The translations under genes were made by a program, and so were the position numbers. Positions 2,701 through 62,087 of a stretch of 64,000 nucleotides of DNA are shown here, in pieces. The notes beneath the pieces are model-generated. The model saw only the letters and a program-made list of their open reading frames with translations. It was not told the DNA's origin and made no database searches. The first letter of the stretch is position 1. Each line of letters opens with the position of its first letter. The DNA comes from Chiloscyllium plagiosum (taxonomy: Eukaryota): NCBI RefSeq assembly GCF_004010195.1, contig NC_057718.1, forward strand, positions 51,716,373 to 51,780,372, in the 5' to 3' direction.

Positions 2701-3458
2701 ACTCAGCTTGACAGTCAATACATAGTTATTAACTTTTCTAACCACTGCTGCCACATTGTTGGAACTAGATTCTGTGCATTCAACTCCATGTATGCATGGC
2801 TAAATATGTCCACTGCCTATGCAGAGTATTAATGACTGTATACTCCTCCCTCCACCTCCAACATGTAGGGGTGTGTATAAAATATGTCAGACGATGAACC
2901 CACCACCTTCTCATCCAATCCTGGTCTCAGCCCCTTAGTACTCTGGAACAGGCCAGTGTATGAATTAGCTCATAGCTTACCATATTTAAATTGCTAATTA
3001 AAAGTCAATTAGCCTTAACAAGCCGACTGACTTGAATAATACACTACCTAAGCCATGATATGGCTGGCAGCGACAGTAGTATGGGAGTGGATAGACTGTT
3101 TTTAAAGGCCTATATGATCCAAGTCAATTGGAAGGGGATGTCGCTCTGCATACATTGAAGTTATTTCTATTTGGGTGAGGGCGAGGAGGATGAGCAGTTG
3201 CATCAACCGACTCTACCAACTAAAATCTAGTCAACAGCCTTTTTCTTAGACTTCAACCAGGTGAAAAGTGCCGCCAAGGCATTGACTTTTTTAATTAACT
3301 CATGTTCCATCCCAATTTGCCCTTGAGAAGGAGATAATAAGCTCCATTCTAAAACCATTGCAGCCCATGTGCTGTATGTAGATCCACAATGCCAGGAGTG
3401 AGGGAATTCAAGGTTTTGTCCCAAGCAAACTGAAGAAACCAGAATACATTTCCAAGTC

Positions 3459-3498
3459 AGATTCCTGAAGAAGGGCTTATGCCCGAAACGTCGATTCT
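3459..3498 (+). ncRNA. Minimal type-I hammerhead ribozyme motif; predicted cleavage after C3492
   Basis: agattc-CTGAAGA-a-gggc(ttat)gccc-GAAAC-GTC^gattct: CUGANGA and GAAA cores, 4-bp stem II, 5/6-bp stem I, and stem III reduced to the palindrome ACGU. Confidence 0.8.
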
Positions 3499-3556
3499 CC
3501 TGTTCCTTGGATGCTGCCTGACCTGCTGCGCTTTTCCAGCAACACATTTTCAGCTC
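3461..3556 (+). mobile_element. 96-bp non-autonomous Penelope-derived element carrying a hammerhead ribozyme
   Basis: Flanked by a perfect 16-bp TSD tacatttccaagtcag (3445-3460, 3557-3572). Shares the gatgctgcctgacctgctg.gcttttccagc tail with copies at 22.0, 24.3, 27.2, 51.5 and 61.8 kb. Confidence 0.88.
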
Positions 3557-5099
3557 TACATTTCCAAGTCAGGATGGTGAGTGGCTTGGAGGGAAACATG
3601 CAGCTCATGGTGTTCCCATGTAACTGCTGATGTTGTCCTTGTGGACAGCAATGGGTTTGGAAGTTGCTAGTGTTTTTGAATCTAGGAAGCCTCTTCATGC
3701 CGGCTACACCATTTTCTTTCAGCTTGTCAGATCCAAAAGCATCCATTGGTAGCCTTCAGTTTCATAGTGCAGCTTTCCTTTTATGGAGAGTGCATATTTA
3801 AGGAGTGCTGCCTGTAGCATATGCCATTGACCCAACATTGCTCAGCCCCTCAACTCACAGCACTCCTGGGAGAAGGGTAGAAGTGTAGAATTGACACCAC
3901 TTTGCAAGGTAATGGTTTTAATGAGCAGGAGCCCAAAGTTACATGTTCCCACCTCCATTTGAACTAAAATGGGTAAGTCAAGACAATAACAACTAGGCCA
4001 TGCATTCGAGATGGGTTGGTCGCTTAACTATCAAGACATGTGTTTCACAATTAATGCCATTTTAGATTGAACCGTCGACAGCTGAGTCTTCCAAGTCCTG
4101 GGATACCCACTTGCAAGAAGGAGGTAAGGACTGTTGGATTAAAGAGGTAATCTGTTTTTCAATATCTGTTTTTCAAATTACTTTCTGAATACAGTTTACC
4201 TGCATTATCAAGATGACTGTGATCTCCATTCCAAGGCTTAGTATCACCTTCACTAAAAATCTTTCCATGCATCTCCAGAAGCTCAGTACCTGACATTTTA
4301 TTAAATTCCAAGGCTTTAGGCCCATCTTTCTATTTTCAAATTCATTATGATGCCAAAGGTCTATCCACCTGACAGACAACTGGCCTCTTAATTCAGCTGA
4401 CACAGGACAATTAAGATAAAAGGCATTCCTCAGATTTTACTTTAAGTTCTTCCTGATTTTTCAATCTCAAGACAGCAACTCCTGCCTTTCTCTGTCTTCA
4501 AAATATTGAACTATTCATTTAAATGTTTCTCATAAATGGTGGAAAATTGTCACTTTTAAAAAATATTGATATTATTATCGATTGGTAAGAACTGAGTTTT
4601 TCAAATATAGACTATAGTGATTTCCTTGCAAATATACAGGAATGATCTTCATTCTTATAATGCAAATATGCTATTAATTCAGACAAGCTTAAAATATTAA
4701 ATGCAACAAGTTGTACATAAATAGTGGTGAAAAATGTATGTCAGTTGAAAAACATTTTGGAATCTGAAAAGGTAAGCTAAGTTATCATCAGTTAGGTAGA
4801 TTGTGAGGATGGGAAGATAGGACACTTAGTAAAGGTGCACAGAGAGCAAGACTACTACAATGGATTGCTCTGTCACAAAGACTGATGTGGGAACAGTGGG
4901 GCATAACAGAAACTGTGAAAACATGACAGAAAGTTTCTGTAAGATATATGTAACTATACAAATGCCATTTTATTATGTGGATAGTAAACAGATAGTACAG
5001 ATTGACACTATTCTACAATAGAAACCATTCAATTTAGATTTCCATTGAGTACTGGAGATGAAGGGCAACAAAATAATTGCATTAGACGTGCAATGTTGA

Positions 5100-5450
5100 T
5101 TTATTTATGTGAGCATCCAAGTTCAGTGGGTAATAGGGAGGCAAATGAAATGTTGGGATTTATTTCAAAGGGAATGGTGTATAAAAGTCGGGAGTCATAC
5201 TAACACTATACAAGGCACTGGTCAGAACACAGCTGGAATACTGTGAACCCTTATCTAAGCAGAGGCTGGGTCATTAAGTATATTCAAGGCTGGGATAGAT
5301 TTTTAATCAGTAAGGGAATCAATGGTTCTGGGGTAAAAGTGGGAAAGTAGAGTTGAAGTATATCAGATTAGATTTTATCTCATTGAGTTGCAGAGTGGAC
5401 TCAATGGACGACTTTCGTTCCTACATCATATGGTCGGATGGTCTTATGTC
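5100..5450 (+). mobile_element. CR1 LINE 3' fragment with an internal deletion
   Basis: LYKALVRTQLEYC motif followed by the typical 3' UTR (gatttttaatcagtaagggaatc). Confidence 0.7.
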
Positions 5451-8370: not shown

Positions 8371-8389
8371 AAAACTTCAAAGGGTAGAT

Positions 8390-8900
8390 AAAGGCTGGTT
8401 CCCCTGGTGGGAGAATCCAGGACCATTGGGTTAATCTCAGAATTAGAGGTTACCCAGTTAAGACAAGGTTGGAGAAAAATTTCTTTCCTCAAAGGGTTGT
8501 GAATCAGTGGAATTCTGTACTGCATAGGGAAGTAGAGGTTGGGTCATTATGCAGGTTCAAGGCTGAAATGGACAGATTTTTAATAAATAAAGGGATCCTG
8601 GGTTAAGAGGAAAAGGCAGGAAAGTCGAGTTGAGGATTATCAGATCAACAATGATTTGGAGATGCTGGTGTTAGACTGGGGTGTACAAAGTTAAAAATCA
8701 CCCAACACCAGGTTATAGTCCAACAGGTTTATTTCGAAGCACTAGCTTTTGAAGTGCTGCTCCGTCATCAAGCTAGTGCTTCCAATTAAACCTGTTAGAC
8801 TATAACTTTGTGTTGTGTGATTTTTAACTCAGATCAGCTATGATCTCATTGAATGACTCAATGCACTAATGTGCTCGTTTCTGCTCCTATGTTTTATGGT
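8390..8900 (+). mobile_element. CR1 LINE 3' end (interrupted at 8656-8829)
   Basis: gttgtgaatcagtggaattct...gatcagctatgatctcattgaat...ctgctcctatgttttatgg tail. Confidence 0.7.
8656..8829. mobile_element. Second fold-back short-element family, nested in a CR1 tail, with a hammerhead-like remnant
   Basis: Inverted arms (agttaaaaatca...ttatagtccaacaggttta / taaacctgttagactataa...tgatttttaact); TSD cagatcaacaatgat / cagatcagctatgat (13/15); minus strand ttgatga-cggagc...aaaagcta. Confidence 0.7.
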
Positions 8901-20100: not shown

Positions 20101-21231
20101 TGTGCAGAAATGCAAACGCATGCAATACTGGAAATGTATGTTTATTTCAATTTGTTTTTTTAAAGTATGAATTATGCATGTATTTCCATTTCCATGTTTG
20201 AATGAAACTAAAGCAAGCATTTTCACTGTAAAAGAGGCTGCACATTCTTGTTCACATGGCTGTTTGCTTAGGGCCGCAGACCTTGGCCTTTGAAGGGTTG
20301 TGTACCATCTTTTGATCCAAAACAAGTGTGTAACTATCACCACAATACAATAAAAATGGACTTTTAAAAATATGAATATGATTAGAATGAAGAGTAGTGG
20401 ATATAACATTTGTTAAAAACAAAGAGATGAAAGCAGAAGCCCATAAAGTTATTCAAGGGATAGTAAATTACTAATTTGTTGCAAAATATCTACTTTACAA
20501 AATAATTTTTCAAGTTCAAAGTTTCTCAACCTTGTATAACTACACAAGTAATGTACACTTAGAAAAACCTGGAGCTGGATGGGATTGCTTTGCATTTTCA
20601 ATAAAATATCATATCGAAGTTGGGAAAGACTCAGCAAGGTATTGCTCATGGAGACTGAAGCAAAGTTATAATTTTTGACTACTTCTATGCCTGTCCTCTT
20701 TAAACTACTCCACAAATATTGCTTGTGATGAAATGACTATAAAAGTGCATAAAGGCAACTACAGAACAAACATAGTTTCCTGTGAATATCCGGCACCAGA
20801 TCAATAGCAATCTTCTTTTTTTTTATTTGGAGATTATTTTGCACCCATCACATATTGCAATGTATGACAGAAATGTGTGAGATGCTATGTCTTCTATAAT
20901 GCTTGACAAATGGGCTTCTTGCTTCAGATACAAAGAAAATATAAAAATGAAATATGAATTCATTAAATGCATTTGAAAACGAAAGTTGTACTTTTAGTAT
21001 AAGAAACATTTCAAAAATGTATTATTCATAATGAAACAGAAATGATAATTTTGTTTATATGAAAAAGCCAAGTCTCAAAAGATGGGGTTATAACTTATGG
21101 CAACAAGTTTTATTGCATCTTTCATTCTTAAGTGTTTTTGTATTTTCAAGCAGATTCATGAAAACAACCTAATGAACCATTTAAAACAACTATAAAAAAA
21201 TGTGACGATGCAAAGTCAAAATGGGCGTTAC

Positions 21232-21435
21232 CTAGGTTGACAGTTAGTTTGACACGACCACCATCAAGTTCCAGTCTCAGAGTATCTGCTGAATCTCGGG
21301 AAGTGGTTGCCATCAAGATTCCGTATGCTCGTTGGGACATAAACCGCAATGATACATCCTCTGCTTCCGTGTGCATTACAACAGGTAGCTGGATTTTCAT
21401 AAACTTGCTTCCATCATAGCTCAGTATTGTTGCTT
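21232..21435 (-). CDS. NRXN1: Alpha-neurexin internal exon, 204 nt, phase 1-1: (E)[67 protein letters not shown] (N-terminal LNS4)
   Basis: Acceptor tttaatag|AA GCA; donor AAC CTA G|gtaacg. Joins the previous exon as G+AA = Glu, giving ...[14 protein letters not shown]..., as in vertebrate neurexins. Confidence 0.97.
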
Positions 21436-22020
21436 CTATTAAACATTGGAGGAAATAAAACATCCTGAATATATTTCAGTACATAATAATTCTAAATTTC
21501 AATTTCAAATCTTTCTAAATGCTGTGCCATTGAAGATTCAGCATTTTTCTGTTTTCTGGCAGTCTGTTTCAGCTTTGGGTTACAAAGATCATTACCCTCT
21601 CAGACAATTAGCTTTGTTGCACATATGCAATGTAAAATTCTGATTTTTGGATTGAAAATGCTTAATGTACAAATATGAATATCAAGACTCTTGAAAGAAT
21701 CACCAAAGTTCCATCAATCAAGATTAATCTTTAAGATATGTATTTAGATAAAATGCAAAAATACGACATTTTAAAACAGTTAAACAAATTAAAAGTAAAT
21801 GTTCAACTGTATTGATAATTTTGCGTTTGACTCACTGAATACTTTGAAAAACTATTGAAATACCTTTTCTTGTTCAAATGAAAGAATTAAATGCACAGTT
21901 TAATGTAAACATGGCTCAAACTTTGTTTTACATAAATAACTTACTGCTTTCTCAGACTATGTTGCTCCTCACGTTTGAAAAGATGTTGAACAGAAGAAAA
22001 TAAGCAGGATTCTTAAAGTA

Positions 22021-22188
22021 GGCAAAAGTGAGGACTGCAGATGCTGGAAATTAGATTAAGAGTGATACTGGAAAAGCACAGCATCTCAGGATCAGGAAAA
22101 TCGATGTTTTGGGCAAAAGCCCTTCATCAGGAATTCCTGCTCCTTGGATGCTGCCTGACCTGCTGTGCTTTTCCAGCACCACTCTAAT
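22021..22188. mobile_element. Fold-back Penelope-derived element with a degenerate minus-strand hammerhead
   Basis: Perfect 16-bp TSD caggattcttaaagta (22005-22020, 22189-22204). The minus strand reads ctgatgaagggcttttgcccAAAACATC (core mutated). The arms are inverted copies of the family tail. Confidence 0.85.
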
Positions 22189-24290
22189 CAGGATTCTTAA
22201 AGTACCAAGATGAGTTATTGTAAAATAAAGTAGAACAGCAACAAGGTTTGAACAGATGAAGTGAAATTTGCTCAGACTTTTTTGTCTATTTGGCACTAAA
22301 GATATTTTAAACCTGTGTTAGGAAAATGAAATCTTAACTTTGGATTCAAACCAAGTAACAATTCCTTAACATCTATGCAGTTTGCATAATACAAGTCAGA
22401 AAAGATAGGAGATAAAATAATAATCTCCTTTTGCTATTTACGTGGGTCATCTGGTGTTCAGGTTAAAGCTGACAGCACATGTTCCTTAGGATACTTGACA
22501 ACATTTACCCACAGCTGACCTGCAACACTCATCATAAGAAACACAAGATCTTAGAGCAAACACAAAGGATGGTTAGTGTTTTATTATTCAGTTATAATCT
22601 TTAACCATGTTTAGCTTTACTTGATGCTGCCTTTTTTTTGTTTGCCTTCCTCCACTTCTATTTCATTTACAGATTTTCTGAACAGAATGAATGTCCCTCA
22701 CTGTTTAAATGTTCTATCATTTTAAATGCTGTTACATGATTGTTAAAATACCACAGAATGCATTTGCGTGGGTGTTAGGGGAAAGTGGAGGGTAAAGAGA
22801 AAGAAGTAACTGTCAGCAAGAAATACTTATTTTGTGGAACAATCTATCAAAATGACAGCCTTGGATTAGTGATGACTTGTAATAGTTATTGGATACTTTT
22901 TTTTTCTTTGCAGCTAACTGAGAATGATATAAAGGTGATCCACTGATGCTAGGCAAAGACTGTCAGGAGGCATGTCAGCTCATTGTCATTGATTGTCACA
23001 CAATTGTTGATCCAAAGCCATCTTTCTGTCTACTGAAGTTCCTACTGAATTATTCTATGCGGAAAACAAATGTCAATGGGGATTATGTTCAAAAGAAAAG
23101 TCAATTCCTGATCAGTCCGGGAAACAAAAGCCGCACGTTGATCAATGACAGTTTGTGCACATCCTCCATATTTATTCTTAAACTTTCTCCACATTAAATG
23201 TCAATTGGGCGCATCTCCTTTGTTTTCACTTCAATTAATTCTGGCTTTGAACAGCATGTAGAAGCCTTTCAACTAAAAACCATGCTTTAATGACAGAAGT
23301 GGGTTGAAAACAAAACAAAATTCTGGAACAAATGGGCATAAATACTCAGTTTTATTTCTTTCTCTACAGCAGTGACTTCCTTAAATCAATTTCAAATAAT
23401 ATCAAAAGTTACCCTGAAGGGCAAGTCGTTCTTAAAAGGCGGAAGGTGTAATGATAAGTTTATAGAAATAAACCCAACAGGGAAGAAGCTTAATTAGAAA
23501 AATAATAGGCCAATTTAGGTTACATTGTGGAGATTTGGGAAGGTGTTCATGTCAAAACAAAATCTGCTTCCTAACCCCAAACTCACCTCCAGTCTGCAAC
23601 CATCCATTTCTGGCTTTAACTGGCTTCTGGCCTTTATCCACTATAGATGGTGCAGCCAATCAGATCCAAGAAGATGGACTGCAGTTTTAAATATAATATG
23701 AATTCTGTGAAACTCATTGAGGCTGTCATTGAGGAAATCAATCACTTAAATTACAAAAACCCTGTGGCTTTTAATCCTGAGTGACATGTTCTTCTCACCT
23801 TTCAGACTGACCCATTCCTGCATGTCAGGTTGGTGAGATCGTATCCTACACTTCTCTTTATTCTATGTTACAAAAGCAAAATATTGCAGAAGGGGAGAAC
23901 AAATATAGATAGGAAAATCTAGAGAGGGGCCCCGGTTAGCATTGGGCCTGGGAAGGAAAACACTTCTTTACCTTATTGTATCAAATTAGATTAGTTAATA
24001 ATGCTAACAGCTAGACTGAATGATAACATCATTCTCCAAACCTGATCACAACACTCTTACAACAATGGTGTGTGGTCTGCTAGCCATCAGCAAGGGATCC
24101 TCAGTCAACATTGCCAAAGGCAAGCAAACTGAAAATGTCTTCAGTGCAGCGCTATGGCTAACACCCATGGCAGTACTTGAAGAAATCACCTCACCAAATT
24201 CTGCAACACAAAGCCATGGTGGAAATGTCATACCTCCAGCTAAAGACCTGCATCTTGTGGAAGGCCTCAGCCAGTCTGCATACTTGACAG

Positions 24291-24500
24291 TGAGAAAATG
24301 AGGACTGCAGATGCTGGAGATCAGAGCGTGGTGCTGGAAAAACACAGCAGGTCAGGTAGCATCCGAGGAGGGGGAGAAGCGACGTTTGGGCATCAGCCCT
24401 TCATCTCATTCCTAATGAAGGGTTTATGTCTGAAACGTTGATTCTCCTGCTCCTCAGATACTGCCTGACCTGCTGTGCTTTTCTAGCACCACACTCTCGA
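24291..24500. mobile_element. Palindromic Penelope-derived element with two divergent, degenerate hammerhead remnants
   Basis: 15-bp TSD ctgcat(a/g)cttgacag (24276-24290, 24501-24515); inverted arms of about 90 bp centred near 24405. Confidence 0.85.
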
Positions 24501-24789
24501 CTGCATGCTTGACAGACTGGTATCACTGAATTGATTGATCAGGTCTTGAATAGTCTTTGGAGTCTCTTAGATGTTTAATAATCTTCTGGTTAGTGTGCTA
24601 CATTGTCAAGATCCTGAGAAGACAGGATTGACAGGGAAACTGCCAAAATTAAGGAGCTCGTTAAAGCTACTGATTCATACTTTGGGAATCACAGGACAAC
24701 TCTGAACAACAGAAACAAAACCAGCAAGGACACTCAGTGTATTGCAGCCAATTTTGACTTCCTTTCTAATGATCTCAGTCAGGCACCAG

Positions 24790-25305
24790 CTGAGTGTTAA
24801 GATCTGGTCTCACTCCTATAGGAAGGATGGTGTGAAACTTGAAAAGGTTCAGAAAAGATTTACAAAAATATTGCCAGTTTTGGAGGGGTTAAGCTACAGG
24901 GAGAAGCTGAATAGGCTAGGGCTGTTTTCCGTGGAACGTCGGAAGCTGAGGGTGACATCATATAATCAGGATAAATAGACTAGGTCTTTTCCCTGGCGTG
25001 GGAGAGTCCAGAACTAAAGGGCATAGGTTTGGAATGAGAGGGGAAAGATTTAAAAGGGACCTAAGGGGTAGCATTTTCACGCAAACCGTGGTGTGTGTAT
25101 GGAATCAGCTGCCAGAGGAAGTGATGGAGGCTAGTATAATTACAGCATTTAAAGGCATCTGGATGGGTATATGAATAGATGGGTTTAGAGGGATATGGAC
25201 CAAATGCTGGCAAATGGGACTACATTAATTTAGGATATTTGGCTGGCATGGATGAGTTGGACTGAAGGGCCTGTTTCCATGCTGTACATCTCTATGACTC
25301 TATGA
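24790..25305 (+). mobile_element. CR1 LINE 3' end
   Basis: YRKDGVKLEKVQKRFTKILPVLEGLSYREKLNRLGLFSVERRKLR and a tctatgac repeat tail. Confidence 0.9.
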
Positions 25306-25778: not shown

Positions 25779-27191
25779 CTAAATTAAATTATAACATTTT
25801 ATAGAATTAATAAGCCAACTAAAAACAAAATGTGGCCTCGTGGCTATGTAATACCATTCAAACTTGAAATCATGACGATAATATTAGCATATTTCTTCAG
25901 TAATCTATATCTGATCTTTTAACAAACAGACTCCTGAGCTGGACTTTTTCTATGATTGGAGGGCATATCTATAGTTGCAAAATTGGTAGTGAAAATGGAA
26001 TTGGGAAATCCAAACGTTGAAGATAGCTCACCCCTTTCTGAGGGTGATAGGGAGGTGGGGTGTAGAGAGAGTGAATAGTGGATGTAGAGAGAGGTGGATT
26101 CTAATTGCACATCCAATGGTTCATGAAGGTTAATGGCTCAGGCTAATGTGATTTTCTCCAGTGGAATGTCCAAAACACAAATTGCTCAATTTAGACCTGG
26201 TCAAACAACTTTTCAAAACAATGAACACTGGATCTAAAAGCAAAAATTTTGGATTGCAAAAGAAAAAGCTTCAGCTGCTTGACTGAAGTTCCCAGACTAT
26301 GACACTTACTGAGAGAGGTCACATGATATAGTTTCTGGGTGCAAAATATGTTCGTTTTGAAGACAGACAGTCAGAGAAAGCTTGGTAAGGAGGGTGAGCC
26401 TTTGCTCACTCTTTCGTTCTCGGAAACGCCTCTTATCAAAGTTTTTGTGGTGAAAACCCACCAGAAGACCTCACTTCTGTAAGTGGAGGGTTCTTAAAGG
26501 AAAAGTGTGAATCTCTATCATTGTCTTCAGAAAAAGTAATTTTAGCCCGGCATACCCAATCCAAGAAAGATCTCACTAAAAATAATTTTATTGCAAGTGA
26601 CTTTGGCTGCAGACCAACATTTGAACAATCGATGAATAATTCTTTATTTTAAATGAACTGTTGTTTTGGCCAAAGTTCTTCTGAAATAATAATATGAAGG
26701 GTTTGTGTGTGTGTCTGCGAATGTTTTTTGAAAAAGTCAGTTGAGTATCTTTGTGCATTTTAAATCTTAATACCTTAAGTCTATTCATATTTCTAAAATA
26801 ATCACTTGAGTTATTTTTATGCAATGCAATTGTGTTAACGTCAGGAATCTGTCCGGCTTTTTCTGATACTAAGCTGCATACACTTCAAAACATATGATTG
26901 GTACTATCATTTCCCTTTTAAATTAAATCTTTGTTGTGAACAGTAGAGGAGCGAGACAAGGAAAGAAATCGGCATACCCCTCCTAACATAGCTGAACATC
27001 GGCATCTCCAAATCATAATCTAGCTGTGACACTGTAAAGAAAGGAACATTCAATTTGCTAAGAGACAGGAAATCTTGAAATCTGTGAGGTAATAATCACT
27101 CGCAAATGAATGTGTAATCTCTAGGAAATGCAACATGTATGTTCAAGAGTTACTATGTGGAAGAATATAATTGATGCTATTATAAGGAAAA

Positions 27192-27367
27192 GGAGAAAGT
27201 GAGGACTGCACATGCTGGAGATCAAAGGTGAAAAGTGTGGCACTGAAAAAGCACAGCAGGTCAGGCAGCACCTTAGGGGATGATGAAGTGCTTATGCCTG
27301 AAATGTCAACTCTCCTGCTCCTTGGATGCTGCTGACCTGATGTGCTTTTCTTGAGTCAGACTTTTTG
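27192..27367. mobile_element. Older fold-back copy of the same Penelope-derived element
   Basis: TSD gctattataaggaaaa / gctattataatgaata (14/16; 27176-27191, 27368-27383); degenerate tgatgaagtgcttatgcctgaaatgtc. Confidence 0.75.
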
Positions 27368-29999: not shown

Positions 30000-30625
30000 G
30001 ACAGGGTGGTTAAAAGATGTTTCACATGCTTGCTTCCATTGCTCAGTCCTTTTGAATATAGGAGTTTGGAAGTCATGTTAAGGTTGTAGAGAACATTGGT
30101 GAAGCCTCTTTTTGAGTTCTGTGTCCAGTTCTGGTCAACTAGTTATAGAAAGGATATTATTAAGCTGGAGAGGGTTCAGAAGATATGCAGCAGGATGTGG
30201 CTGGGTATTGAGTTAGAAAGAAAGGCTTGAACGTTTTTCAGTGGAGTGTATGAGGTTGAGAGGTAACCTTATAGAAGTTTATAAAATCATGAGAGGCATA
30301 GATAAGGTGGACGGCAAGGGTCTTTTCCCGAGCGTGGGGGAATTCAAAGCTAGATGTCATATTTTTAAGGTGAGAGGAGAAAGTTTTAAAAAAGGCATGA
30401 GGGACAACATTTTTACACAGAGTAGTTCGTGCGTGGAATGAAATTCCTGAGGAAGTGCTGGATGTGGGCACAATTACGTTTAAAAAACATCTGGATAAAG
30501 ACATGAATAGGAAAGCTTTGGAGGGATATGGGCTAGGAGCAGGAAGGTGAGGCTAATTTAGTTTGGGGGCATGAACTGGCTGGACTGAAGGGTCTGTTTC
30601 CATGCTGTATGACTTTATGACTCTA
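30000..30625 (+). mobile_element. CR1 LINE 3' end
   Basis: RLRGNLIEVYKIMRGIDKV; tatgactttatgactctat tail. Confidence 0.9.
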
Positions 30626-34654: not shown

Positions 34655-34870
34655 CTAAGAACTGCAGTTGCTGGAAGTCTAAGACATAAACAGAGAGTGC
34701 TACGGTAACACAACAGTTCTGGAAGCATTTATACAGAGAAACCAGAGTTAACATTTCAGGTCCAGAGACAAAGTTCAGTGGGTTCTGATGAAGGGTCACT
34801 GGAATCGGGATGCTAATTCTCACAGATGCTGCCAGACTTCCTTTGTTTCTCTAGCATTCTCTGTTATTGT
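34655..34870. mobile_element. Third fold-back short-element family with a degenerate hammerhead; related fragments near 8920-9000, 46360-46475 and 49230-49345
   Basis: ttctgatgaagggtcactgga at about 34783; inverted arms; aagaactgcagttgctggaa is matched in reverse at about 49330. Confidence 0.6.
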
Positions 34871-37760: not shown

Positions 37761-38834
37761 TGGTTTTAAGTGAATGTGCGTTATAAGAGGGAATGAGATG
37801 CACTCTAGTCCAATCCATTAGCATGGTTTCTGTTCCTGCATGCCATGTTAGCTGCTGATGCACCCTGCAATGCAAGTCAGTGCTACCTAAGTACATATGC
37901 ACCCATGCACTTTGTATGGGTTGGCAAATTTTGGATGTCAATGACTGGACGAAGGACATGTGCAGCCAGTGCATGTCTGACTGTGAGCTGAGATGCTGTT
38001 TGATGCTGGATGCTGGTCACAGGCAGTGGCAAGCTGAAGTCACCAGGTACCCGCTTTCTGATCACTGACATGATATGGATTATTCATAAGGCATTTAACA
38101 AGTAATAGGTCCCCTTAACTGGCAACCTGCCACTGCCCAATGAGGAATACCCGTCATTGCTTGCTAAAAGCATTAAAAATGCTCCCAACGTTGAGATGGC
38201 TTTGGCGGACTTCTTGTCCAATTCCACCACAAATCTCACCATAGCCCAATTCACTCAGACCCCCATAGGATTCTGCCCATGATTTGTAAAGACTGATATA
38301 CTCTATCCAGGCAGTGACAAAGATACTTCATCTAATTTTATCAGAGTGACAACTATCAGCTGGTATCAAAGAAAATGTTGGAAATATTGGGATTTGGTTG
38401 AAATAGGAGTTTGGCTCAAACAAATAGATCAGTAGATTAACTGATCTTCAGCAGTAACAAGACTAGTCAGGGGTTGCCTCAGTAAGAATTATTATTTTGT
38501 ATTTGCAATAAACTTGCTTAGAATCATAGAGTCATAAAGGTTTACAGCAGGGAAACAGGCCCTTTGGCCCGACATGTCCATGCCGCTCAGTTTTCACAAT
38601 TAAACCAGTCCCATTTGCCTGTGTTTGGTCCATATCCCTCTATATCTATACCATCCACCTGTCCAAATGTTTCTGAAATGACAAAATTATACACAGCTCC
38701 ACCACTACCACTAGGCAGCCTGGTCCAGATGAATAAATTGATCCCCAGACTCTTTCGTATCTCCACTCGCTCACTTTTAAAAGGGTGATTCTTTAGAGAT
38801 CCCTGATTCCAGCCATTTATCTTTACAGATGTTT

Positions 38835-39690: not shown

Positions 39691-40979
39691 AAATAGCAGA
39701 ACATTACAAAAACAGAGAATGACTGAGACATGTCATTTAATGTAAATAGTGTTAATTGACATTTTGTTTCTTATCCATTGGGTCAGATGAGGCAAATGTC
39801 AAACAAAAAAATAACAGGAAAGATTGTTTAAAGGTTCCTGGGGAGTGGCACTTGGTGGGGGGAAATGATGATGCCCAGTGGAGGTCCTTGGGGCTGATGG
39901 GGGCATTTGTCAATGGCATTCTGAGAGCTAGAAGCTCTCATGGATGCAGCCATTTTGTGGTTCTTGATTCCAGGAAAACCATATCAAAAGTCTGAGTATG
40001 ACAAGGTATTTTCCAGAAAAAGAGATAATGGGGCTCTCACTGGCTTTCCAACTGGGGTCAAGACTTCCATTGTCTCCACACAATTCAACTCTGGATCTGG
40101 AATTTTGTATAAGGGTGTAATGGTTCAGAAATGTCAAGGAGCAGATTAAGTCCGTCTGATTTGATGAGGTGACCTGGGGACAGAGAATAATTCTTTGTTC
40201 TGTTTAATTGCAGAAGTACAACCTAATAATTTTTATGATAGTCTTGTAGCAACATCTGTTATGATAACGTAACTTCTGTCTATTTATTATTGTACAATAA
40301 TCTCCATCTTGTTTAAGACAATATCTCTTCTCATTAGAAAACCAGGTGGTTTTCCTCAACTTCACCAAGAAAAAGGATCTTGGCAAAAATATGTTTCACC
40401 AAGATGAGCTGTGGCAAGAATCCAACAGGCAACATAAAACATTTTTCTAAAATGCAGTAAACATACTGTAACAATGTAATGAAAAGAACAAAGTTCTAAG
40501 AATTGTATTCCACTCCTTCCAAGTCTTTTCCTGTGTTTTTTCCCCAATGTCAACTGATCACTTCAAGACATCATAATTCATGCAAGATGTAAAATGAATG
40601 AGATTCTCATCATGAGTGCCACAATATAGCTAGCAATTGTATAACAAGAGACATGTTTTCATTGGCTCAGACAAGTTGTGCTAATTTCTCAAGTCATCTC
40701 AAGTCCTCCTGTGAAAAGTAGCATTAGTAGCTTAACATAACATTAAAGGGCAATTCTCAAACAGTCCTCTGAAATGACAGATAAAAGTGCTTGCACGCTT
40801 CGTACGATAAGAGTGATTGTCAAATTTTACATGATGAGAAACCCTGTTGCACAATGAATATAAACTGAAATATGTTAGGGAGAAGGAAATTTCATTCATT
40901 TTTTGCTTCTGAAATAGATTTTTCTTGTAAGAAGAAACAAATAAAACCCATGTTATTGGGGTTCAAATGTCCTGCTTAC

Positions 40980-41363
40980 CTCTCTCACAAGATTTGCCAA
41001 GAAATCCAGTTCCAGAGCAATCACAAATGTACCTGTTCCAGCCTTCTCTACAAACACCATTGTTTCGGCATGGATCACTAAGGCACTGCTTTGGACCTTC
41101 CTTTGCACAGGAAGGTTTAACTCCAGCCACATTTTGGATTTCAGCCATTCTCCGTATATCTTTGCTTTGACCATCGATGAACAAGTCTCTGATACATCCT
41201 ACATATCCGTAGTTAAGAAGAGCTGTCCACACTTCTGTTGGGAAAATAAGAGCTGCTTTGTTCTCAGGTAGTCCACCCAAATATAAGTCATCATCCAGGT
41301 CCAGAATTTCACTCTCCCCATGTGCCATATATGGTGAACGCTTGCTGTTAATGGTGATAGTAC
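40980..41363 (-). CDS. NRXN1: Alpha-neurexin internal exon, 384 nt, phase 1-1: (G)[71 protein letters not shown]...[35 protein letters not shown] (C-terminal LNS3 + EGF-B)
   Basis: Acceptor ttttctctccag|GT ACT ATC; donor GAG AGA G|gtaagc. The translation is unmistakably neurexin. [14 protein letters not shown] and DGQSKDIR match NRXN1 as I recall it. Paralog assignment is less certain than the family. Confidence 0.97.
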
Positions 41364-42744: not shown

Positions 42745-43135
42745 TTCTGGAATATTGTGTCCAGGTCTGGTTGCCCAGTTTTGGAAGGATATTATTAAGC
42801 TGGAAAGGGTTCAAAAGAGATTTACCAGGATTTGTGGGTTGTGGAAGGTTTGAGTTGTAAAGAAAGGCTGGTTAGGCTGGGACGTTTTTTCACTGGAGCA
42901 TAGGAGGTTGAGAGGCAGCCTTGTAGAAGTTTTAAAATAATGAGTATAAATAAAGGAAGTGGTTGATGTGGTATAATTACAATGTTTAAAAGACATTTGG
43001 ATAAGTACATGAAGAGGAAAGGTTTGGAGGGATATGGGCCAGGACCAAGCAGGTAGGTCTCGTTTTGTTTGGGCTTATGTTTGGCATAGAATAGTTGGAC
43101 CAAAGGTTCTGTTTCTGTGTGTATGACACAATGAT
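42745..43135 (+). mobile_element. CR1 LINE 3' end with an internal deletion
   Basis: KDIIKLERVQKRFTR motif and a tail matching 30000-30625. Short tail-only copies lie at about 33440-33550 (+) and 38520-38720 (-). Confidence 0.85.
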
Positions 43136-44434: not shown

Positions 44435-44550
44435 CCTGACCAATTGAGCAGCGCTTTGAAAATTTGTACTTCCAAATAAACCTGTTGGACTATAACCTGG
44501 CGTTGTTTGATTTTTAACTTAGTCCAACCCAGTCCAACACTGCCACCTCC
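44435..44550 (+). mobile_element. Another copy of the 8.7-kb short-element family
   Basis: taaacctgttggactataacctgg...tgatttttaactt is shared with 8787-8829. Confidence 0.65.
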
Positions 44551-45073
44551 TCATCATAACTTCACATTGACATGCCACAAGCTTCACCACATTATCATGC
44601 CTGCTCTCAAACCAATTCAGACGTCACCTCAGGGTTTTAACACTTGCATGCTTCTACCAGGTCACTCTGTAAGCAGGAACCACCACACATCTCATGATAT
44701 GCTCACTATGTTTTTGCACCAACATGCCAATATGCATCTTTAACGCTCTTAGCTTGCTTGGCACTGACTCACTTTAGGACTTGCTTGGTTACTACCAGTC
44801 CTGCCTGTTTCACATTCCTTTCTCAGCGCATACTGATTTTAGCACTGAGTTAACAGCCTGCCAGAGTCTGAGTATAATTTGCTTTATAGCACTGTGGAAC
44901 AGATTGGCAGCTTGTGATGTTATAGGGGCACTGAACAGTCAGTCTGTCAGTCTGCAGACGTGTTATTTTATGACACACTAATGGCAGAGTTGCAACATAT
45001 GACAGCAGTTTATGTGGCAAACACAGTCCATGTTCTTTAGCAATATGGCAATACGTAGAAGTAAATATGTGGG

Positions 45074-45412
45074 ATGGCACAGTGGCGAGCACTGCTGCCT
45101 CACAGCACCGGGGACCTGAGTTTGATTCCAGCCTCAGGTGACTGTCTTTGTGGAGTTTGCACAATCTCCCTGTATCTGCATGGGTTTTCTCTGGGTGCTC
45201 CGGTTTCCTCCCACAGTTATAATATGTGCAGGTTAGGTGAATTGGCAATGCTAAATTGTCCATAGTGTTCAAGGATGTGTAGGTTAGGTGCATAAGTCAG
45301 GGGTAAATGTAGGGTAAGCGGGTAGGGAAATGGGTCTGGGTAGGTTACTCATTGGAGGGTCGATGTGGACTTGTTGGGCTAAATCGCCTGTTTCCACACT
45401 GTAGGGATTCTA
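45074..45412 (+). mobile_element. tRNA-derived HE1/V-SINE-type element
   Basis: A box tggcacagtgg, B-box-like gtttgattcca, core tgtggagtttgcac...gggtgctccggtttcctcccacag, tail cacactgtagggattctat. Confidence 0.85.
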
Positions 45413-48707: not shown

Positions 48708-51538
48708 GCCCTCACCTACACACGTGCTCAGGCCTTCAAAAAATTAATTCAGTGTTCAGGAGTGGTTGTGTCTGACCAAAGCGATATTGACCCTTCTTTA
48801 GATTTCTTCTTAGATTTTTTATTGTCATGTGTACTCGAGTACAGGAATACAGGAGTACAATGAAAAGTGTACAAAGTCACTATTTGCCACCTTAGACGGG
48901 ATTAAAAACAGAAGCAGAAATAAAAGAAACAGCCAGTGAGAAAGGAAACACCCAGATCACTTCCCCACCTCTACCATGTGCCGAGAAAAAATATTTATAT
49001 AAACTGGACTTCAGAATCTCCTCAGTTCAGAGGATTGATTCCAAGATGGATGGCCAAGCCAGTGTACTGTGAGCAAGTAAATAAAGGGTGACTTGGTGAT
49101 GGGATACCAGCCTCTGTGCAGTTTTTCCAATTTCATGGACAATTTTGGATAAGACTCCTCAGGAAAGATGTACAGGCCTTTGAAAGGACACAAGGGAGGT
49201 TTACCAGGGAGAGATCAGTCGGATAACATTTTGACCCTGGACACTGGGCTCAAAATGTTAGTTTTGTTTCTCTACAAATGCTGCCAGTTCTACAGTGTTC
49301 CTCAAGAACTCTCTGTTTGTGATTCAGATTTCCAACAGCTGCAGTTCTTTGTTTTATTTATCTGATGTAATCTGGTTATAAAGAGAGCACGGATGGCTAT
49401 GAGGTGATTGAATAACTTTTTATCAAGGTGGTGAGAAGAATTCATGGAGTGGATAGGGAAAGAATTCCCTTTAGCAAATAGATCAATAACCAAAGGTCCC
49501 TGACTCAAAATCATTGGTATAAGAATTACAGCAGAAAAGCACAGAATGTTTTCACTCAGAGTTGGTGGAATTTGTACTAGATGAAAAGGTGGTGGAGATT
49601 GATTCCATAATTATTTTAAAATGAAGTTCAAAAGATACTTGAGAAGAGGAAGCTACAAAATGGCCAAACAGTGGGATGTTGGATAAAAAATGATTGCTTT
49701 TTCAGAACGCCAGCACTGGTCTGATCAGCTAAATTACTCTGTCCATACTGTATGTTTCTATGGTTTACAGACAAATCAATGATTTATTGTACCACTACGT
49801 TTGTCACAATTAGACTAGCTTTTAATTCCAATTTTTAAAATCAAATTTCAGCATCTGCCATGGCAAAATTTGAACTCAAATTCTCAGAACGTTAGCTAGC
49901 GCTTATGGATTTGTAATCTAGTGATGTTACCACTATAAAAGAACGGAGGGTCCAGAGCTTAAGGGAATGTTAATAGGACAAATGAACGAACAAAAGGTAG
50001 ATCGAGAGACTGTGTGAATGGCGGAATCAAGGATAGCTGAGACAAAAATCTCATCTTTTGATCAGTTACCCTATTGCACTCTGGATTCAAAAGTCACTTT
50101 AATAAATTCAGATTGCAATCAGTGACCCTATTTTATCGATTATTATGGAGGTTATAATGAGACAAGTAGGGATTTTTTTTTGATTAAGAGTGAGTTGCGA
50201 GAGCTTGTTGGAGGGATTCACTCATGAAACCTACCATGTTCTCTGGACGTATCATACCGAACTTGCCATATAAATTCCACTTTTCTTTTGTAGTGGAAAC
50301 ATCACTGGACTAATAATCCACAGGCCTCAGGCTATGTTCTGTGAACACAGGTTCAAAACTCACCATGGCAAATGTTGAAATTTTAATATAGTAGAAAATA
50401 ATAGAATGAAAAGCTAGACTAATGGTGACTATATAAGCATTGCCTACAGAACTATTGTCATATATATTTTAAAAACACCTGGTTCATAAACATCCTCTCA
50501 CAACTGATTTCCACCCTATCTTGCCATACACCATTCCGAGAATATCTTGACACTCAGTGGATATCCATATAAAGACCAGTATCCCTTCCACCAACTTCAA
50601 ATTTCAAAGCTCATTGTAGACCTGGACAAGCATTGTCAGTCCAAAGCTGCCCTGTGCAGTTCCTGATATTTGCACAGACATGGGAGACAGGGAGAAATTA
50701 GCACTCTGCTTTAGAGGGAGAGTCTTCGAAGCCCAGCTGGATGGAGTGGTGACAAAGCAGGACTTCCTCCTCCCCCAGGACCAGAGTGTGACCATAACAC
50801 CAGACCATGTTAGCCCTGTCCAAGGTTGTAACCAGGATTAAAGTAGACTCAGATATCCGAAGGAATCACTAGCAATGTAGGAAGAAGTTCAATTTCCTTT
50901 TCCACTCCATCGGGGTAGGTTTCATTATCTTCTCTCTGATGCTTCATACTCATTTTAACTTTGTGACTGTACTCAGCTCCAAAAAAAGACTCATGGTCTA
51001 TCACTCTCATCACTGCCTGCTACATCTTCCCCATTCGCTCTCACACACCCCAGTCATTGACAACATTAATCCAGCATGCCCTCCACACTGCCCAGCCATT
51101 CACTTGGGACATCTCCTCACTTACGCCAACAGTAATGTCTGTGCCACTAGCTTTCATTTCCCTTAATACCTGACTCTCATTCTATGAGGAAAATAATCCA
51201 CCACAGGGCAGAAAGGCTCAAGATAGGCCGTGTGATGAGAAGATGCTGATTCTGACGGCCCTGTATATGCCCTGGCATACCATTGGAGGCTGCCGTTGAC
51301 TTATTTTGCGAGAAACCTGAAAGCAAAAGCTGTTTCCTTGGCTTACCTGAGGCCTACTGACAACTATGGAAGCTTCCTGGCTTTGTGTCTGTGCTAACTG
51401 GCATGGTCAAGACTGCAGCACTGTGAGCCTGGTATCTCTGGCTGAGGAATCAAAGCAGAAAACGGCAAGACAAAGCAATGCAAGGTGAGCATCTGAGTGG
51501 AAATAGAGTGACCAAGTGAACACCCTAAAGGTGCAGTC

Positions 51539-51636
51539 AAGATTAAAGTGGTGCTGAAAAAGCACAGCAGGTCGGGCAGCATCAGAGGAGGAGGAAAATC
51601 GACGTTTCGGGCAGGAGCCCTTCATCAGGAAGGGCT
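51539..51636 (-). mobile_element. Penelope-derived element with an intact hammerhead core, sense to the neurexin pre-mRNA
   Basis: Minus strand CTGATGA-a-gggc(tcct)gccc-GAAAC-GTC at 51628-51601. Putative TSD ccctaaaggtgcagtc / ccctagaggtccagcc (13/16). Confidence 0.8.
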
Positions 51637-51739
51637 CCCTAGAGGTCCAGCCTGGGCTAGTCAATGAGTAGGATGTGCCTTCTTAAGTGCACAGTATCCT
51701 TGCTGCTGCATTACAATGATAGTTGCTGGCACATCATGA

Positions 51740-52633: not shown

Positions 52634-53863
52634 TGGATTTCAGTTTGCTCACTGAGCTAAAAGTTCATTTTCAGATGATTCGTCACCATACTAGGTAACA
52701 TCTTTAGTGATCCTCTGGATGAAGCACTGGTACTGTAGCCTGCTTCTATTTGTGTTTGGGTTTACTTGGGTTGGTGATGTCATTTCCTGTGGTGACATCA
52801 TTCTCTATGGTGATTTTACTTCCTGTTCCTTTTCTCAGTGGATGGTAAATGGGATCCAAGTCAATGTGTTTGTTGACAGAGTTCCAGACAGAAATGCTAT
52901 CCCTCTAGGAATTCTCATGCATGTCTCTGTTTGGCTTGTCCTAGGATGCAGCGTTGTCCAAGTCGAAGTGGTGTCCTTCCTCATCTGTATGTAAGGATAC
53001 TAGTTAGAGTGGGTCATGTCTTTTTGTGACTGGTTGTTGTTCATGTATCGTGGTGGCTAGTTTTCTGTCTGTTTGTGCATTGTAGTGTTTGTTACAGTTC
53101 TTGCAAGTTGTACTCAAAAGGAATGGGTACCCAATGAACACAGTCCGCCGATTCTCAGCAACATACCCTAACAAGCAGACAAAACATGTCCAGAAACCCG
53201 AGCCACTCTCCCCTACATCAAAGACATCTTGGAAATGACTGCCAGACTACTCAGACCCTTTGGCATTATGGTAAGTCACAAACCCACCAACATACTAAAA
53301 CAGCAGTTGATGAACTTGAAAGATCCTATACAGACAAGCAAAACTAATGTCATTGACAAAATGCCTTGCAAGAACTGTAACAAAGACTACATTGCACAAA
53401 CAGGCAGAAAACTAGCCACCAGGATACATGAACATCAACTAGCCGCAAAAAGAAATAACCCATCTCAGTAGCATCCTTACATAATGATGAGGAAGGATAC
53501 CACTTCGACTGGGACAAGACATCCATCCTAGGACAAGCCAAAAAGATACATGCACAAGAATTCCTCAAAGCATGGCATTCTAACCAGAACTCTATCAACG
53601 AACACAATGACTTGGATCCCATTTACCACCCCCTGAGAAAAAGAACAGGAAATGACATCACCACAGGAAATAACATCACTAACCCAAGGAAACCTAAACA
53701 CATAAATAGAAAGTGGGCTATACCACCAGTGCTTCATCCAGAGGCTCACTAAAGATGTTACCTAGTATGGTGACGAACATCTGAAAATGAACCTTCTAAC
53801 CCAGTGAGCAAACTTTACATCCAGAACCTGAACCTGAACTACAAGTCTTCTCAAAACTCACTA
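52634..53863 (+). mobile_element. 5'-truncated Penelope/Poseidon-type element with an inverted duplicated 3' end
   Basis: KRNGYP...TLPYIKD and NVIDKMPCKNCNKDYIAQTGRKLATRIHEH (GIY-YIG). 52634-53106 is the reverse complement of about 53366-53825. 12-bp TSD acacatttcagc (52622-52633, 53864-53875). Degenerate hammerhead in both arms. Confidence 0.9.
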
Positions 53864-53949
53864 ACACATTTCAGCATTGGCGCACATCGCTGAGAGCCGT
53901 TTAAGATTCCACCTTTGAAAATTTCTAAATGTAGTCAACACAATTTTGT

Positions 53950-58250: not shown

Positions 58251-61200
58251 TGATGCATGTTAGGCTAAATTAGCTACAGCTTCCAGCTTTCTAGCTATTG
58301 AGTAGAGGATTTTCATTAACATTTTTCTGAAGCTCGGATTTTTCCAGAAACTTTGGAATTTTAGAAGATTATCACCAATGTGTCAATTACCTCTGTTAAG
58401 ACTTAAAGATACAGGTCATTTTAGATTCAGAAGAAAGGTCAAACTTCAATTGCTTTCCTTTTTTTCTGGTTACTGTCACCATTTTAAGATCCTCCCTCCC
58501 CTTTCCCCTTGACTTTTAATTGTTAGTATGATTTTTCTTAGTGTTTTCCACTGTGAAGACAGAAACAAAATGCTTCTTCAAAGTTTCTGCCATTTCCTTC
58601 TTCCCTATAATTAATTCTCCAGTCTCATCCTCTAACTGATCAATGCTCAGTTTAGCTCCCTTTTACTTCTAATATCTTCACAGACAGTTTAATTATATAT
58701 CTCTTGTAATTTTTCTCTCATCTATTTTTCTCCAATATATGTTAAAAATTTGCTTTTGAAACTTTAGCCAAGCATTTGTCCTACATCTAATTTTGAGAGC
58801 ATTTTTCATATTTTCTTTCAATTTCATACCAAATCTGAAACTTCCATTGTTAGCTATGAATGGTGAATCCTTCACATAGAGTATTTCTTTTTCTCAATGG
58901 AATATATTTTTGCTGAGTTACAAAATATCTCCTTAAATAGTTACTGCTGCTTATTCACTATCTTACTACTTAATCTATATTTCCATTTCATTGTTTATCT
59001 ACCACCTTATTATTTAATTTTTTTTTCCATTTCACTGTTGCTGACACTATCATCATGTTCTTGTAATTGCAATTATTTAGTGAAATACTTTAATTTCAGA
59101 AGCACATTGCTCACCCTAAAACTAAATGCAAAATTCTATTATGTTATGATCACTTTTACCTTGAGTACCCTTTACTGTGAAGTAATTAACTAATCCTTCT
59201 CATTATAGATTACCACACTTAAAATAGCCTGTCCCTTTACAATAGATTCACAGAATCCATTGAGTTAGTAAAGCACAAGAAAAAGGCCCCTATACCCATT
59301 GAGTCATTAAGCAAGTATCTGTACTTTGACTGTAGCCTTGTATTCTATTGCACTTCAAGTGTTTATCTAAGTAGTTCATAAATGTTATGATGGCTCTTGC
59401 CCTTGCCACCCTTTCAAGCGGTCAGTTCCACCCACCACCCTCAAATTGTAATTTTATACATAACTTCATAAAAATATTATAAATTAAAGCATAATTTCAG
59501 AGCCCCCTCTGGTCATCAATTAGTCACTCATAGGACAATCACATTGAGTGACCATCTCCCACACAGTGCCTTGGTCTGACCTAAAATTTAGCTTTGCAGT
59601 GAGATTCATAAACCAAGAGGGAATATTCTGGCCCAGAGGTAAGCAAGGAAAGAAACATTGAAACATATACTCTGAATGGTATTGCGAATATAAATCATGT
59701 ATATTAAAATACAACTTTTAGTTGAAGAGTTAAGCAAAAATGGGCTAAGTGTAATGATGGCAAGCTTGGTATCAATTATACTTAAAAGCTTGGGTCCATG
59801 TTGACCTTAGAGGGTAAGAGCTAGAATGGTAAGTTTACAAAAAAGCAGGAAGGTAAATCTCAACAATATTTTGGCATATGCCTGGGTCTTTTGGTAGATA
59901 GATGTTTGTTGCATTGCAGCACAGGTGCCAGTGCAGTTAAGACAGTCACATAACACTGACCAGATATGTTTCTGCCTTGCCTTTTATCATTCGCTGCGTG
60001 TCTTGGAGTCAGTGTAGTGTCTTAAGTCAGTTAGCTGTGTTGAAATATCGAGTAACATCAGTCAGCACAGAACCCAGACTGTTTGTACTAGTGTCTGTTA
60101 TTATGGCTGTGCAAATAGTGTTTGAATGAACTTCAAGGGATCAATCTCACTAAGAACCTGACTCTATGATATATGTATGGACAAACAAATAAAAATGACA
60201 AACAGCATTAACAGTTGCAATACTTGCAGTGAAGAACAATCAGGAAGATTGGCAGAATCTTCCCAGCCTCTGGAAGACATGGGCAATGGTTGGTCAGTTG
60301 GTAACATAACAGCATTGTGATCAGAAGAGCGATGCTGAGAAATAAAAGTCTGATTCTGCATCCAGGATTGAATGGTGAGACAGGAATTTCCCGTGTGAGT
60401 AATGAGAGAATAATTTGCACCCATTTACATGTATAAGCAATTCATCATAAACTCTCTTATCTCATTGACATAGAGTTTACTATTCTCCCACATGAGAAAA
60501 CAAGATGGTGACAAGAATCATCATGAGATTCAGAGTGGGTACTTGTGACTTCAGATCACCATTTGCTCCCGTGGGCCTCCATCTTACACCACAGTCAATA
60601 ACCTCTCCGGGCACACTTAATGGGTGTGATCACCCTGTTCATGGTGATTGGTATGGACAAGCACCAACTTCATTGCACCTTCATGGGACAAGACAAACCT
60701 ATTTATGATGCAGTTTCACACTTCAATGCTGCACTTCGGAGTGCACCAGCGCCTCTGTGTATAATGCTGCGGATAGGACATTTTCCACACAGGGACAGAT
60801 GTCTAATCCACTGATCCAACCAAAGTGCACATCAGGACTCCTCATTTACTTATTTTGCACTCACTCATTAGGCACCGACTTGAGTGCTCACAGCACCATG
60901 TCTTGCCTTGCATTGCCACATCATGACTGGTCCCTCAGTCAGAAAAGGAAAGCTGTCTTGGTTTGCATGTCAGCACTTGTCAGGACTGTCAGCAGTGATC
61001 AGTCAAAGACAGATTGCCGTACATCACCATGTTATGTCAATCTCATACCTGCACCATGTGCAAGCAGAATATGTGACACTGTATATGCATCAATAAAATA
61101 GCCAAACCTCAAAGGCTAAGGGATATAGTCCTCAGTCAGAACAAGTAAGACATCCTTCACTCAGAGTTCCAGGCATGGTAAGTTAAGGGCATTATCCAAT

Positions 61201-61829
61201 GTCAGCCCAAGGGCTAGGTCATGTTCTGTTGCTTGGGGTCTCTAGGTCAGGGTTCCTTATCTTGACAATCTGGAGAGTAAGCCACAGTCAGTCCCATGAG
61301 TTCAGTGCCACCATTCTGGGACATCGCAGTAAGTTAATTTGGAAATAGCACAAACATTAGGCAGGGTCCATCTAGTTCAGCATTTGGGGCACTGTCAGTC
61401 AGTCAGTCAGTCCTGGGGGTCAGCTCAGTGGAAGTGAACTGGGGTTATCAGAGGCCACTGCTGTGATATCAATTTTGAGGAAGTCAACTATGGAGACTGG
61501 AGAGAGCATGCTGGGACATAGACAACAATTGTGAAGGGGGAATGTCAGCATATGAAGGGTGGGTGGAGATGATAGTGCAGTGGAGTTCATGGGTTACTCT
61601 CAGGAGGGCAGTCGTTAGTGATCACATCCACAGCTTGAAATCACCTATAATCATAGTACCCTGCATGTGAAATGCATGCAGTATCCAACAGTGTGGGATT
61701 TAAATGCTGGTCACAAGCAAACTCGACCATATCATTAATCATTGCAGATTGAACATAGTCATCTTACAGCTCGTGTAGGAGGAAGTTAACCAACAAAAAC
61801 TTATTCTGAGGGTACATAGGTAATATGTC

Positions 61830-62087
61830 TGATACTGGATTAGTGGTGCTGGAAGAGCACAGCAGTTCAGGCAGCATCCAAGGAACAGCGAAATCGACTG
61901 AGGTGGGGGAAGGGGAAATGAGGAAACTGTTGAAGTCCACATTGATGCCCTGGGGTTGAAGTGTTCCGAGGCGGAAGATGAGGCGTTCTTCCTCCGGGCG
62001 TCTGGTGGTGAGGGAGTGGCAGTGAAGGAGGCCCAGGACCTCCATGTCCTCGGCAGAGTGGGAGAGGGAGTTGAAATGTTGGGCCAT
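61830..62087 (-). mobile_element. 3' fragment of a Penelope-like retroelement (GIY-YIG C-terminus) fused to the short-element tail
   Basis: ORF AQHFNSLSHSAEDMEVLGLLHCHSLTTRRPEEERLIFRLGTLQPQGINVDFNSF, followed directly by gtcgatttcgctgttccttggatgctgcctgaactgctg. Confidence 0.85.

Follow-up and report, generated by a model that had tools for sequence, protein, structure and literature searches.

Short hammerhead-bearing repeats in shark neurexin introns as probable pLTR insertions of an endonuclease-coding Penelope-like element

Minimal hammerhead ribozymes in the pseudo-long terminal repeats (pLTRs) of metazoan Penelope-like elements (PLEs) were described by Cervera and de la Pena in 2014, mostly in dispersed truncated copies (PMC4209133), and PLE hammerheads were linked to retrozymes in 2026 (bioRxiv 10.64898/2026.07.22.740005). 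Here we analyzed a stretch of 64,000 nucleotides from the shark Chiloscyllium plagiosum (RefSeq assembly GCF_004010195.1, contig NC_057718.1, positions 51,716,373 to 51,780,372; hereafter the window), in which an earlier note had placed a family of tiny, retrozyme-like hammerhead retroelements in neurexin introns. With a probability of about 0.62, these repeats are instead pLTR insertions of an endonuclease-coding PLE, most of them made when reverse transcription began internally on an uncleaved transcript and continued to its capped 5' end, where it ran off. The novelty that the earlier note had left open falls away for hammerhead-bearing Penelope repeats as such, because of the 2014 description: neither the class of element nor its hammerhead is new, and the family is ordinary though very abundant. 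The mechanistic refinement is testable. A literature search, with Repbase, Dfam and preprint supplements outside it, returned no description of this shark family or of the pile-up of 5' ends reported below.

As far as the available parts of the 2014 paper describe it, the published minimal hammerhead closely resembles the motif found here, with CUGANGA, one unpaired base before stem II, a G-C closing pair, GAAA, a two-base palindromic stem III and a short stem I; those elements, too, are mostly single, dispersed and truncated, with inverted pairs on opposite strands (PMC4209133). Stem II is 4 bp here, unlike in that account, which for vertebrates gives about 4,000 motifs in coelacanth and 9,000 in Xenopus and does not name sharks, whereas a single core pattern has 78,990 matches in this genome; the map of copy ends is likewise particular to the present data. 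The Anolis carolinensis Poseidon element PAc (Frangieh et al. 2024, PMC11167929), in the portions of the report available, also has a hammerhead in the pLTR near the open reading frame (ORF) start, two classes of 3' ends with a 30-40-nt tail between them, and no ends at the cleavage site. It differs in that the linker zinc finger of the shark element points to the Neptune/Nematis type, in that the probable start of the ORF falls about 165 nt past the core, whereas in PAc it is inside the core, and in that those portions report no 5' pile-up with an extra G. Animal non-LTR retrozymes (PMC7229834; bioRxiv 10.64898/2026.07.22.740005), as partly available descriptions have it, share a type I hammerhead, the lack of coding capacity, derivation from or dependence on PLE pLTRs, and target-site duplications (TSDs) longer than 4 bp. 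However, they are tandem 150-450-nt repeats that give rise to monomers and circles, whereas the shark copies are scattered stubs, single or joined head-to-head, and their ends take no account of the cut site.

Positions within the element are counted from the first C of CUGA as position 0, which places the cleavage site at +27 to +29. Subfamilies were assigned by script, with 22, 61 and 19 of 102 cores falling into A, B and C, respectively, and a few A cores filed under B. The six loci in the window are as follows.

3445-3460: left TSD of copy 1, 16 bp and perfect, with its right twin at 3557-3572.
3461-3556, plus strand: copy 1, a solo pLTR stub of subfamily B that starts at A(-4) and lacks the tail.
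22021-22188: copy 2, a head-to-head pair; TSD 22005-22020 / 22189-22204, 16 bp, perfect.
24291-24500: copy 3, a head-to-head pair; TSD 24276-24290 / 24501-24515, 15 bp with 1 mismatch.
27192-27367: copy 4, a head-to-head pair; TSD 27176-27191 / 27368-27383, 16 bp with 2 mismatches (10 perfect).
51537-51636, minus strand: copy 5, a stub with a short inverted head; TSD 51523-51536 / 51637-51650, 14 bp with 2 mismatches.
61830-61898, minus strand: 3' part of copy 6, GTC and downstream pLTR sequence of subfamily A; no TSD detected.
61899-62088, minus strand: 5' part of copy 6, coding sequence for a C-terminal piece of the GIY-YIG endonuclease that belongs to the element, directly upstream of the 3' part.

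All six loci listed in the earlier note exist and are related. Five have TSDs and two of these are perfect (3461 and 22021), as it had stated, but the lengths are 14-16 bp rather than 15-16 bp; in 500 random pairings of windows, perfect repeats were never >10 bp. The loci at 22021, 24291 and 27192, which had been read as single units, are head-to-head inverted pairs that fold into long hairpins. In copy 2, the left arm (22021-22134, minus) starts at A(-4) and has the tail and a decayed core, and the right arm (22135-22188, plus) has no core; in copy 3, the left arm (minus) has the tail and a broken core, and the core of the right arm (24406-24500, plus) is mutated; in copy 4, the left arm (minus) is the tail alone, and the core of the right arm (plus) is decayed. 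The locus at 61830 consists of GTC and tail without a core, as described, but about 190 nt of GIY-YIG coding sequence lie directly upstream on the same strand, joined through an internal deletion of about 240 nt; the statement that the copies are non-coding therefore holds for five of the six loci. No match to RNA polymerase III A or B boxes was found at the six loci with the consensus patterns used, in agreement with the earlier note.

The motif is a Penelope-type minimal type I hammerhead, as the earlier note had it. A minimal-hammerhead descriptor gave 14 matches in 264 kb of unselected DNA and 0 in each of 5 shuffles. Within the window, the hammerhead-plus-tail unit ascribed to the copies keeps an intact core at two of the six loci, the only two that pass the descriptor: copy 1 (3465-3492, plus; predicted cut after 3492) and copy 5 (51628-51601, minus, in the same sense as the neurexin pre-mRNA). 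The other four have broken or missing cores, and an Rfam scan of the whole window returned no hammerhead model at E<=5. Among all loci examined, 305 distinct descriptor matches shared the CUGANGA...GAAA core, stem II, the palindromic 15.2-16.2 pair and a NUH triplet, and the strict core was retained in 43 of 109 arms picked by their 3' end. Read by eye, stem II is invariant within the family (GGGC/GCCC) and its loop variable; also by eye, a U.U in stem I becomes U-A in subfamily C, and compensatory stem changes appear only between families (ACGT versus AGCT in stem III, with stems I and II also differing). The hammerhead thus appears to be kept at the source level, where core and stem II are constant, and to decay after insertion. 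In the monomer fold of copy 1, stem II alone forms; in palindromic copies, the motif is hidden in a long hairpin formed with the antisense arm.

Two further kinds of hammerhead-bearing repeat were observed in the window. One is a second, often palindromic family (8651-8829, 44446-44557, 26995-27016 and 32192-32225) with a GGAGC/GCTCC stem II and an AGCT stem III palindrome, whose window copies are decayed and whose intact motifs occur at loci elsewhere (L013, L088, L100, L180 and others); an Rfam mir-9 match at 8722-8796, below the gathering score, is the palindrome of this family. The other, at 52679-53777, is a head-to-head insertion of about 1.1 kb that derives from another Penelope-like element; it retains remnants of endonuclease coding sequence and, at both ends, has its own decayed hammerhead with a 7-bp type of stem II, intact at L079, L095 and L125.

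A search of the 3.56-Gb genome with the endonuclease fragment of copy 6 yielded 86,087 first-look candidates, the best 150 of which scored 84-92% identity, the window's own excluded. At 24 of the 29 best loci, again excluding the window's own, a same-strand hammerhead core lies 122-275 nt downstream of the endonuclease, in keeping with the earlier proposal that a GIY-YIG/reverse transcriptase (RT) protein mobilizes the copies. The element runs from the endonuclease through a pyrimidine-rich untranslated region (UTR) of about 200 nt, ATTC, the minimal hammerhead, about 60 nt and an optional tail of about 35 nt to the ORF start. Natural frames of longer copies contain a C-x4-C-x2-C linker (L061, L068) and a GIY-YIG-like segment, and the unmasked parts of L068 and L074 include what we take to be RT-like motifs. 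In Pfam, GIY-YIG (PF01541) came up at E=0.018, below cut-off; six frames, partly masked, matched no RT family, and the 70-aa fragment had no match. A CX2-5CxxC zinc finger within the linker that joins RT to endonuclease defines Neptune/Nematis elements in the available text of PMC8557442, and the linker found here points to that type. At four loci (L115, L021, L013 and L184) the tail leads on, about 165 nt past the core, into a frame that opens with ATG, which is the partial-tandem arrangement of the pLTR. Because the endonuclease lies upstream in cis at these rates and the tail runs into the ORF, the sequences argue that the short repeats are the pLTR of an endonuclease-containing (EN+) Penelope-like coding element and not a separate family.

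Internally deleted partial tandems were also seen (L115:4152-5052, L021, L013 and L314), in which the pLTR and the first 120-280 nt after the tail give way abruptly to the UTR or to another unit that begins at ATTC. These are candidate precursors of retrozyme-like non-autonomous units.

Copy numbers across the genome were counted with exact sequence patterns. The 30-nt core pattern mentioned above gave 39,449 and 39,541 matches on the two strands and 0 for its reversed control, and a subfamily-B 3' 24-mer gave 90,287 (45,322+44,965); descriptor-passing motifs of all families were estimated at roughly 190,000 (103,000-316,000). Copies that run into the upstream UTR occur in all three subfamilies, including 12,134 exact subfamily-B copies. 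Variants at two sites were distributed alike in long (18/11/2, n=31) and short copies (70/26/9, n=105; Fisher p=0.40), and a variant that had seemed confined to short copies owed its apparent deficit to a smaller sample, vanishing after 40 extra long loci were added. Among 433 distinct cores, no head-to-tail array of units was found; 38 pairs of cores share a strand at a distance of no more than 1.5 kb, and nearly all of them read as separate insertions or internally deleted partial tandems. The UTR-continuing copies, the shared variants, the lack of arrays and the cis linkage, together with the near absence of ends at the cut site described next, speak against the separate retrozyme-like family that had been proposed.

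We then mapped where copies end, choosing arms by a 3' motif so as not to select for the core (114 arms, 104 after dropping 10 that abut N). The 5' ends of 44 arms fall at 0 to -7 (44 of 71 at risk, 7.8% per nt), compared with 2 of 27 at risk between -8 and -43 (0.2% per nt), so that the hazard falls about 35-fold immediately upstream of -7. A further 20 of 91 at risk end at +9 to +1, and the remaining ends lie at +61 to +30 (5) and +26 to +10 (7), while 25 arms run past -43. At the cleavage site, +27 to +29, only 1 of 99 arms at risk ends; the hammerhead cut site is not where copies begin. An inverted partner lies within 70 nt of 57 of the 104 arms, and 43 of them carry the tail, which gives two 3' end classes. 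In a second sample of 70, the TSD mode was 14-15 bp (24/70) and 15 had no TSD of at least 8 bp. A splice-acceptor origin of the 5' ends, at AG-preceded sites 17-30 nt upstream, was rejected on the 2 of 27 ends in -8 to -43.

The initiator consensus is YYANWYY, and the template at the pile-up, CCTCATTCCT, fits it with A at -4 within an initiator-like TCATTC. In subfamily B genome-wide, 6,556 junctions have a base other than the templated C before A(-4), and this base is G in 3,955 of them (60%; about 27% expected from base composition). The excess persists when arm-templated cases are removed (34/56, p=8e-8), and one and two bases further out G stands at 15/69 and 8/69. It is also specific in position, since copies ending one base later, at -3, have G in 14 of 100 against 63 of 100 at -4 (p=7e-13; the -3 count is a hand tally). 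An extra junction G is read as a copied mRNA cap, marking capped full-length copies, in L1 and processed pseudogene insertions, where it sometimes falls in microhomology (PMC11702581, as far as available); unlike the present case, L1 primes at the poly(A) 3' end and its full-length copies measure kilobases, whereas internal priming with a run-off of about 100-135 nt is proposed here. Most short copies begin just before the hammerhead, and this spot is likely to be the capped start of the element RNA rather than the ribozyme cut site. In subfamily C, 9 of the first 100 listed places are perfect GGAATTCC-centered palindrome pairs with both arms ending exactly at A(-4).

A mechanism that would produce such copies can be assembled from described PLEs. 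In the anole Poseidon element (PMC11167929, in its available part), the protein initiates cDNA synthesis internally, at one site on either side of the tail; both nicked strands are extended, the template is uncleaved RNA, and no RNA ends lie at the cut site. Penelope of Drosophila virilis has a promoter inside the pLTR and is transcribed from within it (PMC2377424, consulted in part). In the shark element, transcription would start at A(-4) of TCATTC, reverse transcription would begin internally at the end of the pLTR on the leader copy of an uncleaved transcript, and run-off at the capped 5' end would yield a cDNA of 95-135 nt ending at the cap, the extra G presumably being the copied cap. 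Palindromes may arise from priming on both nicked strands, as for the anole element in vitro, with two cDNAs joined head to head and the tail on one arm. The hammerhead would need dimerization or the help of a protein to act, and the products of its cleavage would not serve as templates for these insertions. An internal start combined with a pLTR promoter predicts 95-135-nt cDNAs reaching the cap and head-to-head palindromes with one tail, and the copies look so. The Drosophila virilis and Adineta Penelope pLTRs (PMC2377424; PMC3846280), in the parts available, similarly have a promoter and start site with an initiator-like motif, inverted pLTRs with the tail on one arm, and solo pLTRs; there, however, solo pLTRs are few and ascribed to recombination or deletion, whereas tens of thousands with their own TSDs occur here.

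Several observations weigh against run-off at a cap. The 5' ends spread across about 15 nt instead of falling on one base, and subfamily A shows only a weak pile-up (about 4/25 by eye). Most of the end-map sample lies in the first 3 Mb of a single contig; the two arms of a palindrome are counted separately, 14 copies belong to loci retrieved for other purposes, and the two arms of L130 were over-extended by the script. There is no G excess in non-arm junctions of subfamily C (6/20, p=0.45; 43/100 by hand tally when arm-derived bases are included) or of subfamily A (6/23, p=0.70), and a cap-like G general to all subfamilies was accordingly dropped as unsupported by these samples. G also precedes ends at position 0 (38/100 by hand tally; 9/16 non-arm junctions), several of which are element-derived slippage. 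Among the non-inverted G junctions, a lone G separates TSD from element in just one case, and in most simple copies the G falls within the TSD or filler, a placement that fits annealing of the terminal cDNA C to the target and is also compatible with a target-site or microhomology bias. Finally, no RNA start was seen. In a raw RNA run, 2,472 reads fell on a long subfamily-B copy, 92% of them continuing into unrelated sequence, and depth rose several-fold at the core without a site of many molecule starts or ends; the run is possibly from a related species, and true starts would be inseparable from the many genomic copies that begin there. A second sequencing run gave no reads on this copy, and two contig sets are perhaps not RNA.

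The alternative that survives best, though we consider it unlikely, is that solo stubs of about 100-135 nt are transcribed from their own internal promoter and re-mobilized in trans as a true non-autonomous family resembling short interspersed elements (SINEs), in essence the earlier note's model with neither circles nor tandem arrays. Of the subfamily-B arms, about three quarters are indeed short (79/104 end downstream of -43), run-off from a solo copy would leave an identical footprint, internal initiation requires no defined RNA 3' end (PMC11167929), and putative non-autonomous PLE derivatives exist according to the available text of PMC8557442 and bioRxiv 10.64898/2026.07.22.740005. However, neither of the two sites tested revealed a short-only variant, the stubs lack the initiator-like motif bases upstream of A(-4), and the anole protein, by the part of the report available, needs sequence past the RT start, inside the ORF, that stubs do not have (PMC11167929). 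Some solo stubs may nevertheless serve as their own RNA sources.

Next, and again improbable in our judgment, comes ordinary 5' truncation of copies begun at the 3' end of long mRNAs, with RT stalling or a bound protein creating a hotspot at the 5' edge of the hammerhead, and the G stemming from untemplated addition or target microhomology. PLE insertions are heavily 5'-truncated and inverted (PMC8557442, in its available part), the ends are spread from +9 to -7, and the G excess, absent from the samples of subfamilies A and C, is partly seen at position 0. An RT halted by structure should stop on the 3' side of it, but the ends follow full copying of the motif; the drop in hazard upstream of -7 and the confinement of the G excess to -4 as against -3 also oppose this explanation.

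The classical non-LTR retrozyme, in which tandem units cut by dimeric hammerheads supply monomers or circles for reverse transcription, is very improbable and largely refuted for these copies: the type I hammerhead with its palindromic ACGT stem III, the large TSDs, the five non-coding window loci and the detection of retrozymes in one chondrichthyan (bioRxiv 10.64898/2026.07.22.740005, in its available part) would suit it, but cleavage-defined ends expected at +28 are nearly absent, unit arrays were not found, palindromic copies bury the motif, and the unit of about 95-130 nt is shorter than the described repeats (PMC7229834, as far as available).

If the copies are pLTR insertions made by run-off, the end map provides in vivo, genome-scale support for the 2024 in vitro claim of an internal RT start on uncleaved RNA, and it predicts the exact RNA start. 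More tentatively, at somewhat less than even odds, PLEs may routinely shed integrated "strong-stop" copies of their capped RNA leader through internal priming and cap run-off, leaving tens of thousands of start-site records; the hammerhead would then occupy the first 32 nt of the mRNA, its cleavage would function as a decapping switch, and SINE-like and retrozyme families might be seeded by the stubs. The purpose of the PLE hammerhead thereby becomes testable as removal of a 32-nt capped leader.

The host gene was confirmed as an alpha-neurexin on the minus strand. Two exons were recognized.

40975-41355, minus strand: alpha-neurexin exon, neurexin-1-alpha match with E 3e-89.
21149-21475, minus strand: second neurexin-like exon within a stop-free stretch, recognized by eye, borders approximate.

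Other repeats in the window include two old, decayed tail-type repeats (34646-34737 and 49269-49360), distantly like the tail of the pLTR-stub family, and a number of 3' fragments from one family of LINE-like repeats (24823-25305, 30150-30626, 33438-33552, 38524-38649, 42785-43124 and 45366-45403), which we take to be of the CR1/L2 type.

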